A stretch of DNA of 64,000 nucleotides from NCBI GenBank assembly GCA_013239625.1, contig MU053629.1, forward strand, positions 4,305,567 through 4,369,566, in the 5' to 3' direction. Below the pieces are notes generated by a model. That model saw nothing but the letters and a program-made list of their open reading frames with translations. It had not been told where the DNA came from and did no database searches. The position numbers and the translations under genes are program-made. The DNA comes from Lama guanicoe. Taxonomy: Eukaryota. Shown here one piece after another: positions 11,035-63,855 of this stretch (position 1 is the first letter of the stretch; every line of letters begins with the position of its first letter).

Positions 11035-11165
11035 TTTTTTATTTGGTCACGGGGAGGTAACTAGGTTTCTTTCTTTCTTCATATTTAGAGGCAGTACTGG
11101 GGATGGAACTCAGGACCTTGTACATGGTAAGTATGCACTCTACCACTTGAGCTATACCATCCCCC
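11035..11165 (-). mobile_element. tRNA-Ala-derived SINE (Vic-1-like)
   Basis: Reverse strand reads GGTATAGCTCAAGTGGTAGAG...; approximate TSD AAACCT(C)TTTTT. Confidence 0.88.
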
Positions 11166-21369: not shown

Positions 21370-24300
21370 GTAAATATATATATAAATAAAACGTCTCTAC
21401 TTTGAGTCCAGTCGAGAGAAAATAATGCAGACGCTGTCAGCCATGCAAATGCTCATTTTACAATACAGGTCTTGTGGACAGGGATTTCTTTTTTTCTTCA
21501 TTCAGAATTAAGACCTCAACCACTCTAAACGGAAATGCAAGCATATTTTAAAATCTTCTTTTAGAACCAACACCATCACCTTAAATTTAAATAGTTGTCT
21601 GTGACTGCTAAGGAATTCCAACAGGTTTCATTCACACGGTCCGTGCACACGAATCCCGAAGGTGAGCATATGCTCCAGCACTTGTCAGCTGAGCACTTTG
21701 GGCAACCCACCTAGTGCTGCCAAGCCACAGTTTCTCCATTTACAGATGGCGGAAAACCTGACTTCACGAAAGCACAGGGATACAGGGACCAAAATGAATT
21801 ATGCGAAAACATGTTTGGGAAGAGAGCTGACATACATATAAATGCTTGTTATGATTATAATATCTCCAGATCCCCACATTTCACTAAAAGAAAAAAAAGT
21901 CTGCTCCAAATGTTCAGGTATAGAACCTAAACGGCTGATGGTTGCTACGTTAGCATTACACATATTAAAACCAAACGGGATTTTTCTATCTAAGGCTCCT
22001 TCTAGGAAAAGAAGAGTAAGATCTTAAAAGCGAGGTTATCTACATTTTAATATTTTCACAAGTAAAGCACACAATTTCACTACACTCTTCTTGAAGGGAG
22101 GAATGGTATCTTAGTGGTCATTCTGGGTACTGTAACTGGCAAAGAGACCAGCTCTGTTCTTAATATCAGAATATACTTTTTGAGAATGCAAGTAAAATGT
22201 TCATTCATAGAAACATATGTGAGGGCAATCTGGCCTGGGGGTACGAACACTTGCTGTCACACCACATACAGCCTTGCACAAGCATCCTGAGCCTTCACGT
22301 CCCTTTAAAAGGCTACACTGGTAATGCCCCATTTATCTAAAGTCAGACATCTACCCACAATACTGCAGATAAGCCCTCTGAGTGACAAAGATGAAAAATT
22401 TCTTACAAAGTTCACACATACACTTTATCCATAGTAGAGGCCTACTGATTTTTATTTCAAGTTTATGAATAAACTTGGCTTCTTGGTTATGAAATATTTC
22501 CTGCTGTTGGTTAAAAGCGGTAAAATAGATCATAAGTTGAAGGAAAGAGAAACTGGAGAAACCCTAAAGGTTCTTCTTCCTGACATATGGAAGGAAACCA
22601 AACCTTCCCAAAAGGGTAAATTAGACTCAATCCAAAATCTGACTATGGCTTAATGTCACTGAACACTTAAAATCATTCATTATAGTAATCTTTATCTTTT
22701 ATGCCAAAATTAGACTTGATTTGTGATTAATTCAATCTTTAAGATAAAACAGAATGAATGCTCAGCAAATACCACATTCTAAAGCTATCCGTGGTTACCC
22801 TGCCTGTAAACCTGGAAGAAATGACGAAAGCCCTCTTTTATAGTTCACTTTTTCTCACTCAAGTAATCTCTTCACTGGCTGCTCTTATTTTTCACCACAT
22901 CACATGAAGTCACAAAAGAAAGGTCATCGAATTTCAATCACCACAAAAGTTATCCAAGAGGCATTTTATGAATAGAAATAAAGTGGATTATTTTACAGAA
23001 TTAATCTTACTCCCAATCATGCTAATCTACTTCAAAGTACAGTGGTACTGTTCATTAACCACAGGTAATCAGCTCCATCAAGGAAGTGACCTGTCTGCCA
23101 ATTCCGATCCTTAAAGCACATGACAGCCATAAGAAAACTTAAACATCTCTGAGACTGGCTTTGAAAGGACTTTCATATATCAGTTATGCATATAATTCTT
23201 TTGGACAGTTAAATACACCAAGAATCTTAAGAATTCTGAGTAAATATTGATATGTTCACTAGATGTAATATTTGAGGGAAACTAACTTATGATGTAATGG
23301 TAAATGAAAAACAGCAAGAGAAAAATTATTTATGAAATATTGTATGTCAGATATACAAATATATTTGATATATTTATGCAAATATTTAAGATACAGTATT
23401 TTAAATTTTTAAATATAACATTAAAATATGTTAAATTATGTTGTTATATGTAACAAAAATACAATATATTAAAATATAGTAATATATTTTAAAGTTATAT
23501 ATTAAAAATCAGGATAAAAATTACATATGAAATGCAGTTACGAAGTTTTAAAAACCTACACCTTGGAAAAAAAAGCTGGAAGGAAATGCACAGAAATGTT
23601 AACACAGTATTTGTGCTTGGCTGATAAGACCAGGGCCAACATCTTCTTTTCTCCATATGTTAAATTCTACTTAATGGAGTATGCACTACTTTTACAATGA
23701 AACAACAACAAAAAAAAAAAAAAAAAAAAAAAGAGAAAGGGGCACTGCTCAGAGGTAAGAAATGACATAATCAGAGCACTTGGTAAGTGTTGCAAGTAAC
23801 TTTTACCCTGGCAAGGAACTTTTTAAGTGATCACAAATGATAACTAAGTTATAGAGTATTTGTGCCGGAGGGACATCCTGCCTAACTGTCATTTGAAAAA
23901 ATGACAGGGAGAAGTTACAGTTTCCATGATGCTTTACAGTTTACAAAATGCTTTCAAAACGTCACATCGCCTATCCTTCAAAGAATCCTGTGAGATAGGT
24001 TCATGTGACCCACTTTCAGGATTGGGAAACTGAGGGCTTAGAGAGACAATGTGCTTCAGTAACAGTATGTACCACTTATCGACTGTTTACTCTGGGTTAA
24101 GCACAACAATCCTGTGAAAATTATCACCATTTCTCAGATAAGAAAACTAAAGGGCAGAGGTTAAGTGTGCTTACTACGTTACAGCTGAGCATCCCAGCTC
24201 TGACTCAAAGCCACGCATTTAAAACAGGAGTCCCGAGTTACAATCAACTTCGTAGAGTCCTTTAGTGGAGGAGTTGAGCCTATGACTCAGTCCTATTCTC

Positions 24301-24972
24301 TGTCTTCTACGCTGGTCTCCTCGCCCGCCTATGGTTCTTTCAAGAGTTACTTCGTTTGAGGTAATCTTAACCTTCATTTGCAACCACGATGAAGGTCCAG
24401 AGTCAGAGAGACTGGGCCCAGTAATAACCAAAAACTCGCTGACGGAGGGCGTAGCCTCAGGAGGAAGGCACGGCTGTGAATAACTGCGGGGTGGAGGGTA
24501 CAAGGCTAACTTAGCCTTTTAGTACACACATCGAGGGGTGGCCAAGAACCACACTCTTCACTTCAGGAGCAGGGCTGGGAACATAAACCACGATTCCTGC
24601 ACCTGACACTCGCGGGCCTCCGTACAGTTTCCAGAGCGCCTTTTCGGTTCACCTCAAAGGTTGCCCACAACGAGCCCCGGGCTGGGTGGAGGAGCGATTA
24701 GTCCCACTTTACAGAACATGCTGGAAGAAACGCAACGGTGGGCCGAGAAACCAGAGAAGCAACGAGTGTAGGAGCTAGGGGTGGACACCCGGGGGACTGG
24801 GCACCTCGACCGCGTGTGCGGGGCACCCCAGGGGCCTCGGACCACCACCGAGAGAAGAGTCCGGGGCCCGCGGCGGGGACAGAGGCCCCGACGGAGGCGG
24901 CGGTGCTGGGACTGTCGCCCGCCGAGGCTCGGAGCGGGGCTTGGAGGTGGGCCCGGACGCCTCGCTACTCAC

Positions 24973-25045
24973 GTTGGACCAGCCGGTCTGCGGAGAAGGT
25001 GGAGGAGCAGCTGGTGACAAGCGCGCAGGGGACGCCAGCAGCCAT
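24973..25045 (-). CDS. AAGAB: AAGAB coding exon 1 (MAAGVPCALVTSCSSTFSADRLVQ + 1 nt), 73 nt
   Basis: ATG at 25045 (GCGATGG context); peptide matches the N-terminus of alpha/gamma-adaptin-binding protein p34; ends at donor C|GTGAGT, phase 1. Confidence 0.97.
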
Positions 25046-25218
25046 CGCTGCACCCGCGAGCCGGTTCCGTCCGGGCGCCGCTTCCGCCTTGGGCGGCACC
25101 ACGGCCGCCGGCGCGCGGGGGAGACGCGCAGGGCAGGCGCGTCCTCGGAAGGCACGGCCGGCCCCGCCCCCGCCCCCTCTTCCGCTCCCGGCGTGGACCA
25201 GGCCGCGCTGCGCGTGGG

Positions 25219-25232
25219 GTTGCCATGGCAAC
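25219..25232. promoter_or_regulatory. RFX X-box, perfect palindrome GTTGCCATGGCAAC
   Basis: Exact match to the RFX consensus GTYNCC-AT-GGNAAC, between the two start codons. Confidence 0.9.
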
Positions 25233-25311
25233 GAGCTCGCTGCGCGGAGGGTTTCCGAGCCTAGAGACCGCGCCTGCGAGGAAAGGCGGGGAGCCCCGCC
25301 CGGCCCCAGGC

Positions 25312-25362
25312 ATGGCCCAGGAGACGGAAAACCACGACCCCATCGGATCCATCTTAATCCAG
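25312..25362 (+). CDS. IQCH: IQCH coding exon 1 (MAQETENHDPIGSILIQ), 51 nt
   Basis: GGCATGG Kozak context, CAG|GTGGGA donor; peptide matches the IQCH N-terminus; known head-to-head synteny with AAGAB. Confidence 0.94.
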
Positions 25363-25835
25363 GTGGGAAATGGGCCTCTCCTGGCCCTGCCCAGCTAAGA
25401 CCCCTGGAGCGAGGCGCAGCAGCGCCCATCCACTCGCGCCCATCCACTTGTAGCGCCGCCCCCAGCCGGCCTCCAACACGCGAGGGGCAGCGCCCCTCAG
25501 AGGACTCCCAGATTTGCCAATCTCGCCGGCCAGCCTCACACACCTCCGGAGCCTGACCCTGGAGGGTGAGCTTCAGAAGCACGACCATTCTGCCTCTGGT
25601 AAAACTCCAGGACCGTACGCCCCACCTAGGACCTTTACTTTGGAAAAATTCATCTTACAATGGGGCACCATCTTTAAATGTTAATGTTCTGAAAATTTTG
25701 AATCCATGATGTAGGGGAGTAAGTAAGATACAAATCAGACACATTGGAGAAGTGATAAGAAATTCGGGGAGAAATTGAAATATATGAACTGCTTTTCTTA
25801 AGTACCCCAATTTTTTGGATCTAAAAGTCCCTTGC

Positions 25836-26090
25836 AAATAAATGAGTTCTGGGGATGTAATGTACAGCATGTAATTATACCTAATAATATTCTCTTGTAT
25901 GTTTGAAAGTTGCTAAGAGTAAATCGTAAAAGTTCGCATCACAAGAAAAAAGATTGTAACTGTGTGGTGATGGATGTTAACTAGATTTATTGTGGTGATC
26001 ATTTAGCAATATGTACAAATATCCAATCATGTTTTATATGTGAAACTAACATGCTGTATGTCAACTATATATGAATTAAAAATAATAAAT
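25836..26090 (+). mobile_element. 5'-truncated L1MA-like 3' end
   Basis: 13-bp TSD AAAAGTCCCTTGC at 25823-25835 and 26091-26103; TTGAAAGTTGCTAAGAG...TGTGGTGATCATTT motifs. Confidence 0.88.
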
Positions 26091-35228: not shown

Positions 35229-35372
35229 GGGGAGGGTATAGCTCAGTGGTAGAGTGCTTGCTTAGCATGCAGGAGGTCCTGGGTTCAATCCCCAGTACCT
35301 CCATTAAAAAAAAAAAATAAGCAAATAAACCTAATTACCTCCCTCTCCCAAACAAACAAACAAACAAAAAAC
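35229..35372 (+). mobile_element. tRNA-Ala-derived SINE (Vic-1-like)
   Basis: TAGCTCAGTGG A box, GGTTCAATCCC B box, A-rich middle, ACCTAATTACCTCCC, (AAAC)n tail. Confidence 0.92.
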
Positions 35373-41236: not shown

Positions 41237-41363
41237 TTTCTTTTTTTTAAAGTTTATTTTGAGGTTTTTGTTTATTTTTGATGGAGGTACTGGGGATTGA
41301 ACCCAGGACCTCGTGCATGCTAGGCAAGCACTCTACCACTGAGCTGTACCCTCCTCCCCTCTA
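41237..41363 (-). mobile_element. tRNA-Ala-derived SINE
   Basis: 13-bp TSD GATCAGAATTTTC at 41224-41236 and 41364-41376; A/B boxes on the minus strand. Confidence 0.92.
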
Positions 41364-45157: not shown

Positions 45158-45390
45158 AGGGACAGACAGTGGATTGGTGGTGGCCGGAGGTTGGAAGGAG
45201 GAAGGAAGGGTTGGGGATGACTTCTAATGGGTGTCAGGTGTCTTCGGGGGATGATGAAATGTTCTGGAATTAAACAGTGGTGATGGCCGCACGACTCTTG
45301 TGAATCTACTAAACATCACTGAACAATACGCTTTGAAAGGGTGAATTTAAGAGATGTGAATTACATTTCAATAAAGCTGTTAGAAAAAAA
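45158..45390 (+). mobile_element. L1MB/MC-like 3' UTR fragment
   Basis: GGGGATGATGAAATGTTCTGGAATTA...GTGGTGATGG...TCAATAAAGCTGTT. Confidence 0.82.
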
Positions 45391-45624
45391 ATTGTTTTTT
45401 CAAAAGTGTGGATGGGAAATTGTGTTCTAAATGAGAATACATGCCACTGTTGTTTCAGGTATGTTGATGGCATGGTCAATTTCTATGACAAAAGAGCTTT
45501 CTTTGAACGGAGCCCTAGAAGTAAAGTTCCCAGGTGGCAAAGAATAGAGTCCAAGAGGTGTCTTGTCTTTGCCTCCATCGAGTGGACTTCCACTCTGATT
45601 CCCCTTCCCTCCCTGCCTCCTCAG

Positions 45625-45865
45625 CAGTGATAACGGCTCACCCCTTCTGGGCACCAGGTGCTGCTGTCAATGCTTTGGGAACACTAACTTGTTTAACCTT
45701 CAGAACAGTCCTAGAAGGAGATGTTAATATTACATCCATTTTATTGACGAAGAAACCAAGGTTCACGAATGTTAAATAAATTGCCCGAGAGAACACAGCG
45801 AAGGTCAGAGCCAGAATTATGAACCCAGAAATGTGGCGATCCAGAGCTGTGCTCTTAACCACTGT
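45625..45865 (-). mobile_element. MIR
   Basis: CCATTTTATTGACGAAGAAACCAAGGTTCA...GAACCCAG...GTGCTCTTAACCACTG. Confidence 0.8.
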
Positions 45866-46013
45866 GGTACCCTTTTTAAAATAATAGCTTTATCAACATA
45901 TGATTTGTATCTTGTAAAATTCACCCTTTAAAAAGTGTTCAGTCAGTGGTTTGTAGCATATTCACAGGGTTGTGCAGCTGTCAGGTGGCACCCTTTCTAC
46001 AACTGTTTGTGTT

Positions 46014-46872
46014 GGTTGTAGGCACTTTGGCAATAGGCATCTTTGCCGAGGTCATCTTTGCCGCAAGCATTTTCGCCACAGATATTTTTGCCGCATCACT
46101 AATTGGCCATAAGGCGATTTTGTTGTAAAATAATGAAAAATACAAGAGGAACATTAACAAGGACATAATGAAACAAGAGAAATTAATAACAAAATTTACA
46201 AGAATTTATTGCACAATACAGACTATTTGAATGTATTGAAAATGTGTGTAGATCATGGCAATACTGCGCAAACAACAGATTTTATCTTGTGGGTGGTACC
46301 TCAGCATTTGTCTTCCAAGTCTTTCATTCGTAGGATTTTATACACTTTTTTTTTAGCTTGTTGATTCATCTTCCTGTTTGGCATCATGCTTTTTGTTTTT
46401 CACTAACATTTTTTCCTTCTTTAAGAGAAGTATCAGTTTCCAAACACTAGGGTACACGTTTGTGCCTAAACTTTGTGTTGCGCTGTGAAAGCCTCTACAC
46501 TGATGTATTCATGGCATATTTGCCACATGTCCTTTGGTAGATGTTGCAAAGTTCTACAGGAGACATTGGCTCAAGTCTGCACCATCAAGGCCTTCAGACT
46601 CTTTCTCCTTCAAGATAGTGTGCTTCAAAACAAGAAACCAACTCTTGGGCGAAATAATCATCGTCCGGATAAAGGCATCAATAACGTCACTAACCAGAAG
46701 AAATGCTGATGCATTTCAGTCAGTGGGAACCAAACTGTCAAACCAAAAAGAGTCAACCAGTTATTCGATCTTTCATGGCACAATTGCCTTATGGCCAATT
46801 AGTTACGTGGCAAAAATTCTTACGGTAAAGACGTCTACAGCAAAGATGCTTATGATGAAAATACTGGACATG
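46014..46872 (-). mobile_element. Mutator-like (MULE/MuDR) DNA transposon, internally deleted, with transposase C-terminal remnant
   Basis: About 110-bp TIRs built of 15-bp subrepeats; 9-bp TSD GTTTGTGTT/GTTTGTATA; minus-strand decayed peptide AFLLVSDVIDAF...ELVSCFEAHYL...PMSPVELCNIYQRT...GFHS...YPSVWKLILLLKKE...LRSIA. Confidence 0.85.
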
Positions 46873-46879
46873 GTTTGTA

Positions 46880-47070
46880 TAATTCTGTATTTTCCTTTTC
46901 TCATACTTGTCACAATTTGTAACTAGATATTGAGTTGTATGATTTTTTTTTTTAATGTCTGACTTCCCACTAGATTACAGGCTTAATGAGGGCAGGATCC
47001 ATGTCCGTTTGTCCACCGCAATGTCATGCCAGGGAACTCTGAATAAATGTTTGTTGAATGAATAAATGAA
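46880..47070 (+). mobile_element. L2 3' end
   Basis: CCCACTAGATTACAGGCTTAATGAGGGCAGG...AATAAATGTTTGTTGAATGAATAAATGAA. Confidence 0.82.
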
Positions 47071-47683
47071 ACCACCACAGTGACCCCTAATGATGTGCTC
47101 ATCCCCATATAAAAAACTAGTCCGGCCTCCTCTGCGCTCTCGCAGCAGCCTACTCCTACCTTTGTCACTGCATTTGTCGCCCTGGGTTCCTTCAGCCACT
47201 ATCTGTGGAGTACTGGCTGTGTGCCAAGGGCTGTCAGGGGCACACTGGGGTGAGCAATTCAGACCAGGTGCCCACCGTCATAGAGCTTACATTCTAGGCG
47301 GGTGGAGGCAGACCATCAGTAAGAGTATACCAGGTAATGATAAAAGCTCTCTCAAAAATAGAACAGAGCGCCGTGATAAAGAGAGCTGAAACCTCTCATC
47401 TTCCTTACTTCCGAGTCTCTGCTTTTGTTAAAATTTTATCTTTTTGCCAAGAATCTCAGGAGGGCCATAGTTGGTCCACAAGCAGAAGATTGGAGATCTC
47501 TAGTTTATAGAGACAATGAAATAAAACATATGAAATTAGCACTGTTTTAGAACACAGAGTTGCTATTGTTATTCCAGAAAACAAACAAACAAAACTATGG
47601 CCAGAAATTTATTTTCCCAAAAGAGTTTTGAATTCTGGTAAGCGATTATAAAAGGCAAGGAATCTTATGTGTCTGTGTTCTTT

Positions 47684-63668: not shown

Positions 63669-63855
63669 CTCCCCCTTACCCCCAGTGGCTTGTCAATTCA
63701 CTTTTTTCTTTCTTTTTTTTGGTGGTGTGGGGGGAGGTTAACTAGGTTTATTTATTTATTTAAAAAATTTTTTTAGTGGAGGTACTGGGGATTGAACCCA
63801 GGACCTTGTGCGTGCTAAGCATGTGCTCCACCACTGAGCTATACCCTACCCCTAC
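63669..63855 (-). mobile_element. tRNA-Ala-derived SINE (63702-63852) plus 33 nt of extra 3' sequence inside the TSD
   Basis: TSD TGTATTATGCCAT(A/G)TTT at 63652-63668 and 63856-63872. Confidence 0.85.

Follow-up and report, generated by a model that had tools for sequence, protein, structure and literature searches.

How a Mutator-like element (MULE) came to lie in what appears to be an intron of a mammalian gene is the question raised by a stretch of 859 bp in the guanaco, Lama guanicoe (46014-46872, minus strand, of the 64,000-nucleotide window, which is the whole stretch of DNA that was analysed). The original prediction described this stretch as a transposon fossil with terminal inverted repeats (TIRs), a 9-bp target-site duplication (TSD) and a transposase remnant. 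The element is very probably the fossil of a Phantom-type (FLYWCH-DDE) Mutator transposon, a non-autonomous derivative formed by deletion, which is part of a multi-copy family, has relatives in crustaceans, entered by horizontal transfer and decayed neutrally. Membership in the MULE class, taken on its own and judged from sequence likeness, can be held with greater confidence than this full account.

The locus is real and shared, and no assembly artefact, since among the sequencing runs listed, 20 of 24, from nine studies and under five organism labels, contain a fraction of 0.76-0.97 of the words in positions 45700-47200. Exon-like frames are found at ~25320, 32600, 33940 and 45030, and are taken by us to be exons 1-4 of IQCH, which would place the element in IQCH intron 4. 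This identity was not confirmed by Pfam (150 of the 239 frames, all before 43 kb) or by a PDB search with one frame. A CpG island at 24001-26000 (GC 0.56, 124 CpG) includes what is probably exon 1 of IQCH, on the plus strand, and presumably, head to head with it, the start of AAGAB on the minus strand; the AAGAB start was not confirmed by the PDB search, which covered one frame. Just to the left of the element, two further inverted pairs are present between 45299-45348 and 45917-45966, one of 24 nt (79%), the other of 17 nt (94%). We take these to be two opposed old L1 3' end fragments, forming an older repeat beside the MULE, and the right flank (46950-47070) is presumably an L2 3' end.

Both ends of the element consist of long inverted repeats. 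The left (3') TIR, on the plus strand, spans ~109 bp (46014-46122) and is composed of an 8-bp terminus, five 15-bp subrepeats (46022-46096) and a conserved core (46099-46119), and the right (5') TIR, on the minus strand, spans ~94 bp (46779-46872) with an 8-bp terminus, four 15-bp subrepeats (46805-46864) and the core at 46782-46802. The inverted 21-mer formed by the two cores had been predicted and is indeed present with one mismatch (20/21), as is the predicted extra subrepeat on the left. The 15-bp arrays were not reported by TRF, as the units are too diverged. Inverted local alignment of the element ends gave a score of 79, a value also attained in 2 of 292 equally shaped control windows. 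Long TIRs are a MULE feature, and the termini of those found here (94-109 bp) are confirmed by an independent copy, P0079, which crosses a TIR and matches the right end of the window element at 35/45 bases and the left end also at 35/45 (random maximum 27/45 in 5000). Just outside 46872 and 46013 this likeness is at background level, and because it stops there, both element termini are fixed to within a few bases. No second copy of the element was found within the 64-kb window.

MULEs leave target-site duplications of 8-10 bp, and the element is flanked by a probable one of 9 bp, with a left copy at 46005-46013 and a right copy at 46873-46881 (both on the plus strand). The anticipated agreement of 7/9 between these flanks was recovered in the single copy examined, at the symmetric register. 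The chance of such a match is 0.0023 in a fixed register and 0.034 when a slide of 2 is allowed at each end; taken by itself, the TSD is thus evidence of modest weight. A match of 7/9 is also obtained on the same diagonal when the register is moved by 1 or by 3, and the register named above is the only one that results in termini of equal length.

Between the TIRs, positions 46240-46712 (minus strand) carry what decay has left of a FLYWCH-MULE transposase, namely its C-terminal third. In a frameshift-aware alignment, this remnant corresponds to residues 309-467 of P0112, a protein of 467 aa from Macrobrachium rosenbergii that is the best full-length relative, with 74 of 154 residues identical and a score of 265 (25-36 in 12 shuffles). 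The peptide pieces read earlier from the minus strand lie in the right frames, and the span given for them (46255-46710) was slightly short of the actual 46712-46240. The remnant is damaged by three frameshifts (~46666, ~46494 and ~46255) and by at least three stops, three of them aligned, and the third catalytic residue (E384 of P0112) coincides with a frameshift. The FLYWCH finger and the DGTF (D190) and DFE (D252) motifs are all absent from the element through deletion, and the intact ORF with D, D and E that marks an autonomous MULE was not found in it. A short non-coding stretch (46713-46778, minus strand) separates the 5' TIR from the coding remnant, with the deletion junction at ~46713, where the 5' TIR side is joined directly to transposase codon ~309. 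On the other side, 30 nt past the end of the coding remnant, an AATAAA is present as predicted (46210-46205, minus strand), which may be an old polyadenylation signal; as the DNA there is AT-rich, this is weak evidence.

None of the window's three frames, read with stops as X, was matched by Pfam (0/3), and the class of the element rests on its relatives. These bear out the MULE class, since the remnant aligns to full-length proteins that pass the Pfam cut-offs for PF10551 (MULE) and PF04500 (FLYWCH). The window was also matched by tblastn with P0070, at an E-value of 5e-16 (best of 200 shuffles 0.015). A phmmer search of 1.84 billion proteins with one stop-as-X frame resulted in 42 matches at E <= 0.001, including one full-length protein of 453 aa from Caligus rogercresseyi with MULE and FLYWCH domains above the Pfam cut-offs. 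Further protein searches returned 6, 46 and 14 proteins; the last 14, from a profile search, are longer, and the best of them is from Macrobrachium rosenbergii (E 1.8e-68). All eight named relatives are crustacean (Macrobrachium, Palaemon twice, Lepeophtheirus twice, Oratosquilla twice and Caligus), in searches that were word-based and may miss closer relatives in other phyla. In the Atlas, the close relative P0070 falls with mostly arthropod MULE/FLYWCH clusters (0.98). The FLYWCH domain that the window copy lacks is found in these closest relatives and, in decayed form, in the sister fragment P0108.

The crustacean FLYWCH-MULE proteins (Macrobrachium rosenbergii XP_066969100.1, Palaemon carinicauda XP_068250292.1, Caligus rogercresseyi QQP42000.1 and those of Lepeophtheirus salmonis) share 48% identity with the window remnant. 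They are intact and 453-470 aa long, whereas the remnant is decayed, and the comparison was made at the protein level. A structure model of P0112 was built from 23 sequences with a pLDDT of 89; the fold from the single sequence (pLDDT 36) was of no use. The top PDB match of the model is ISCth4, an IS256/Mutator-type transposase, with a modest likeness (E 1.5e-4, TM ~0.3), and its top viral match is the bracovirus protein O92526 (E 6.8e-22), which is presumably a Phantom transposase. A PDB sequence search with 23 transposases matched just a FLYWCH domain.

The element is not alone. Protein matches, most of them short frames predicted from assemblies in ENA, Logan and JGI, gave 77 distinct representatives, which were split by eye into 63 of decayed type and 14 that were set aside (13 intact-looking and one spurious, P0026, which was dropped with its cluster as a spurious repeat match). 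At the protein level, this supports the expectation of a multi-copy element, as 63 of the 77 matches look like decayed pieces of paralogous copies. The decayed fragments form 29, 41 or 45 groups at 70, 75 and 80% linkage, giving a family of ~30-45 loci in a grouping that pools fragments irrespective of host species. When the 77 proteins were placed on 45401-47500, coverage was confined to 46055-46893, and in 34 cases (33 once the spurious P0026 is discounted) at least 15 residues align with parts of the element that are off frame or do not code. Because these parts align too, the likeness among the copies is one at the DNA level. The median pairwise identity of the decayed fragments is 50% (1294 pairs).

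The deletion seen in the window copy is shared by the family. The same junction is present in each of the eight fragments extending to the remnant's 5' edge, with the match to P0112 beginning at residues 307-311, and before the ALAFL-like motif they carry the same non-transposase sequence as the window, where the intact transposases are coding. Two pairs among these eight are probably from the same locus, which leaves about six independent loci. The shared junction indicates that the deletion preceded the amplification. In addition, P0011, P0039 and P0079 have the order of TIR to transposase, or its reverse, that is seen in the window element. Another arrangement is found in P0108, a fragment from outside the window, in which an N-terminus from the FLYWCH region (P0112 residues 1-89, E 2e-11; 0 of 1000 shuffles as high) is joined to the C-terminus of the family. 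This fragment is the only one of its kind among 124 decayed-type proteins, and its structure points to a second deletion derivative, which kept the part lost in the window copy.

DNA of other copies was also searched for. Of the stretches matched in two metagenome scans (36 in one, 254 in the other), none was confirmed, and three viral scans matched 2, 31 and 3 stretches and yielded no locus. Three related viral contigs (L001, L002 and L003) that share a 19-base match to the pattern of the TIR core were rejected, as their likeness (E 0.12) is one of chance. The sole locus found by the genome scan (L004) was matched by none of 19 transposases and was likewise discarded.

Among described systems, the element is closest in description to the Phantom group (group 20 of Dupeyron et al. 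2019, PMC6446971), which has a TSD of 8-10 bp, TIRs of 18-613 bp, one ORF and hosts that include Crustacea. The relatives of the window element similarly carry FLYWCH and MULE domains in one ORF, and the group includes MuDR-3_Lsal of Lepeophtheirus salmonis, listed in neighbouring table rows (PMC6446971). Unlike the group, the window element is non-autonomous and lies in a mammal, and the cited passages of that paper accept no MULE in mammals (PMC6446971). Muta1 and Muta5 of Aedes aegypti, again likened by description, have a TSD of 8-9 bp and long TIRs in which a short terminal motif is combined with tandem repeats in subterminal position (units of 15 bp in Muta5), together with non-autonomous derivatives whose repeat numbers vary as in the window family (PMC5225508). 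Hundreds of such derivatives are described for Muta1, which mobilised them in yeast (PMC5225508). In contrast to the window element, Muta1 and Muta5 are young and have an insect host, and Muta1 is active (PMC5225508).

Within mammals, the nearest described elements are Ricksha and Ricksha_0, placental MULE-MuDRs held in Repbase and Dfam, which are likewise old, MuDR-class and non-autonomous, with long TIRs. We assume that the termini of Ricksha differ from those of the window element. The window family may already be catalogued, either as a Ricksha subfamily or as another Dfam or Repbase family that is undiscussed in papers, and this has close to an even chance of being so. A family of dozens of copies is easily picked up by de novo tools; 374 of 437 human MULE-MuDR protein fossils are already known to RepeatMasker (Frith, PMC9004415, Table 6); Repbase lists RICKSHA, RICKSHA_0 and Ricksha_a as its human MuDRs (PMC5753468); and the MuDRs of four bats are called ancestral and shared (PMC4971623). 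Against this, the window TIRs measure 94 and 109 bp, compared by description with 79 bp in Ricksha (PMC1431705), RICKSHA carries an ERVL/MLT2B insert that the window element does not have (PMC1431705; PMC3531169), and the interior of the window element is explained by a transposase remnant. This remnant aligns readily to MULE transposases, whereas the mammalian Repbase MuDRs were not matched to them in the cited passages of Dupeyron et al. (PMC6446971). The TIR length is a weak test, since the number of subrepeats varies, and 94 bp minus one unit is 79. The original prediction that the element may be no Ricksha and poorly catalogued agrees with the TIR length for its first part, and its second part was compared with published descriptions. 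No description of the window family was found in the literature searched, whose scope excluded subscription papers, Repbase Reports, Dfam and supplementary library files. We tentatively consider, at somewhat less than even probability, that this mammalian MULE family is uncatalogued and goes back to a horizontal invasion of its own, distinct from Ricksha, by a Phantom transposon of crustacean type, and that at least two of its deletion derivatives spread in an early laurasiatherian ancestor.

The origin of the family was approached by comparing its reconstructed protein with the intact enzymes. The majority residue of the 63 decayed fragments is that of P0112 in 104 of 149 columns (70%), a figure that is biased upward by keeping columns solely where a stretch had an identity of at least 40% to P0112, and unfiltered BLAST of the same majority against P0112 gives 65%. 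This identity of 65-70% to the crustacean proteins is accompanied by a common 99/97 clade with the remnant. A tree built from 36 rows groups the 12 decayed ones, that of the window element among them, in one clade (99/99), which is star-like with mostly unresolved inner forks. It nests in the 99/97 clade with the Macrobrachium, Palaemon, Lepeophtheirus, Caligus and P0070 proteins. As the node that joins the decayed clade and the crustacean groups lacks resolution, the tree names neither donor nor direction. The star-like shape would fit a single burst following horizontal entry. Inheritance from an early animal ancestor, with persistence in the vertebrate line and no horizontal transfer, is improbable; it draws on this tree node, on the lack of a named donor and on the word-limited searches. 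However, an identity of 65-70% to arthropod transposases over ~150 residues is something that a mobile gene would hardly have retained since arthropods and vertebrates diverged, none of the eight named relatives is a vertebrate, and the star-like clade fits one burst.

Two fragments of the family, P0014 and P0105, begin with what we take to be a ruminant SINE, and P0101 begins presumably with a carnivoran SINE. A laurasiatherian host range is a lead, not a result. The copies are estimated to differ by ~12-16% at the DNA level from their common form, corresponding to tens of millions of years, which is our own rough conversion from the 50% pairwise identity and a 74% agreement with the majority. 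This is similar to the divergence of TIGGER1 in four bats, which is 14-16% (PMC4971623).

It is very unlikely that the window copy was co-opted, whether for regulation or as a domesticated piece of transposase. In favour of this, the element lies ~0.9 kb past an exon-like frame, and its locus is present under five organism labels. Nonetheless, the remnant has three frameshifts and at least three stops, its sister copies are equally similar in off-frames, and none of the 20 runs that contain the locus was recorded as RNA, in a search that had asked for DNA. A chance juxtaposition of TIRs and TSD around a stray or contaminating fragment, to which the two control windows that equal the inverted-repeat score and the imperfect TSD lend something, is scarcely credible and appears already largely refuted on the sequence data, as P0011, P0039 and P0079 independently keep the TIR/transposase order, the likeness stops at both termini, and the locus with its flanks is found in the 20 runs from nine studies.

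For the deletion derivative of a Phantom-type transposon, the following history is proposed. An autonomous parent with a FLYWCH-DDE transposase of ~467 aa would have entered the germ line of an early mammal horizontally from an invertebrate lineage. An internal deletion may then have taken codons 1 to ~308, and with them the FLYWCH domain, D190 and D252, while both TIRs were spared. By analogy with Muta1, the parent transposase could have acted in trans on the short form and moved it by cut-and-paste, with the subterminal repeats as recognition sites and a 9-bp duplication made at each insertion; binding of the transposase to the 15-bp units is likewise suggested by analogy. The family would later have died out, with its copies decaying neutrally. 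The window copy is unable to encode an enzyme because of its frameshifts, stops and deletion, and it is most likely fixed in the intron and inert now.

The true absence of MULEs from vertebrates was listed as an open question by Dupeyron et al. (2019), whose cited passages report no MULE transposase in vertebrate entries, nor in a horse sequence reported earlier (PMC6446971). The window family is a direct counter-example to this absence, since its alignment with intact FLYWCH-MULE enzymes of crustaceans is clean. At the level of the class the point is already known, since human MULE-MuDR protein fossils have been tabulated (PMC9004415). The value lies in the family itself, its age, its host range and its tie to prawns and sea lice, and the single locus is probably inert. 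The family would offer a datable horizontal transfer, and if it does come from a separate, uncatalogued invasion, it would provide an alignable mammalian MULE transposase and show that MULEs entered the germ line of mammals more than once.

Two further observations were made alongside the element. In palaemonid prawns, a group of FLYWCH-MULE proteins from outside the window (P0112, P0167, P0116, P0113, P0123, P0075, P0076 and P0094) has intact frames in Macrobrachium and Palaemon, is 83-90% identical among its members and is annotated as uncharacterized; this group is a candidate for a recently active transposon. In the window, five tRNA-like heads (1257-1333, 11088-11161, 35232-35303, 41282-41353 and 63776-63848), four of them of tRNA-Ala(AGC) type, are probably tRNA-derived SINEs, and the tRNA-Ala heads presumably fit a camelid SINE.
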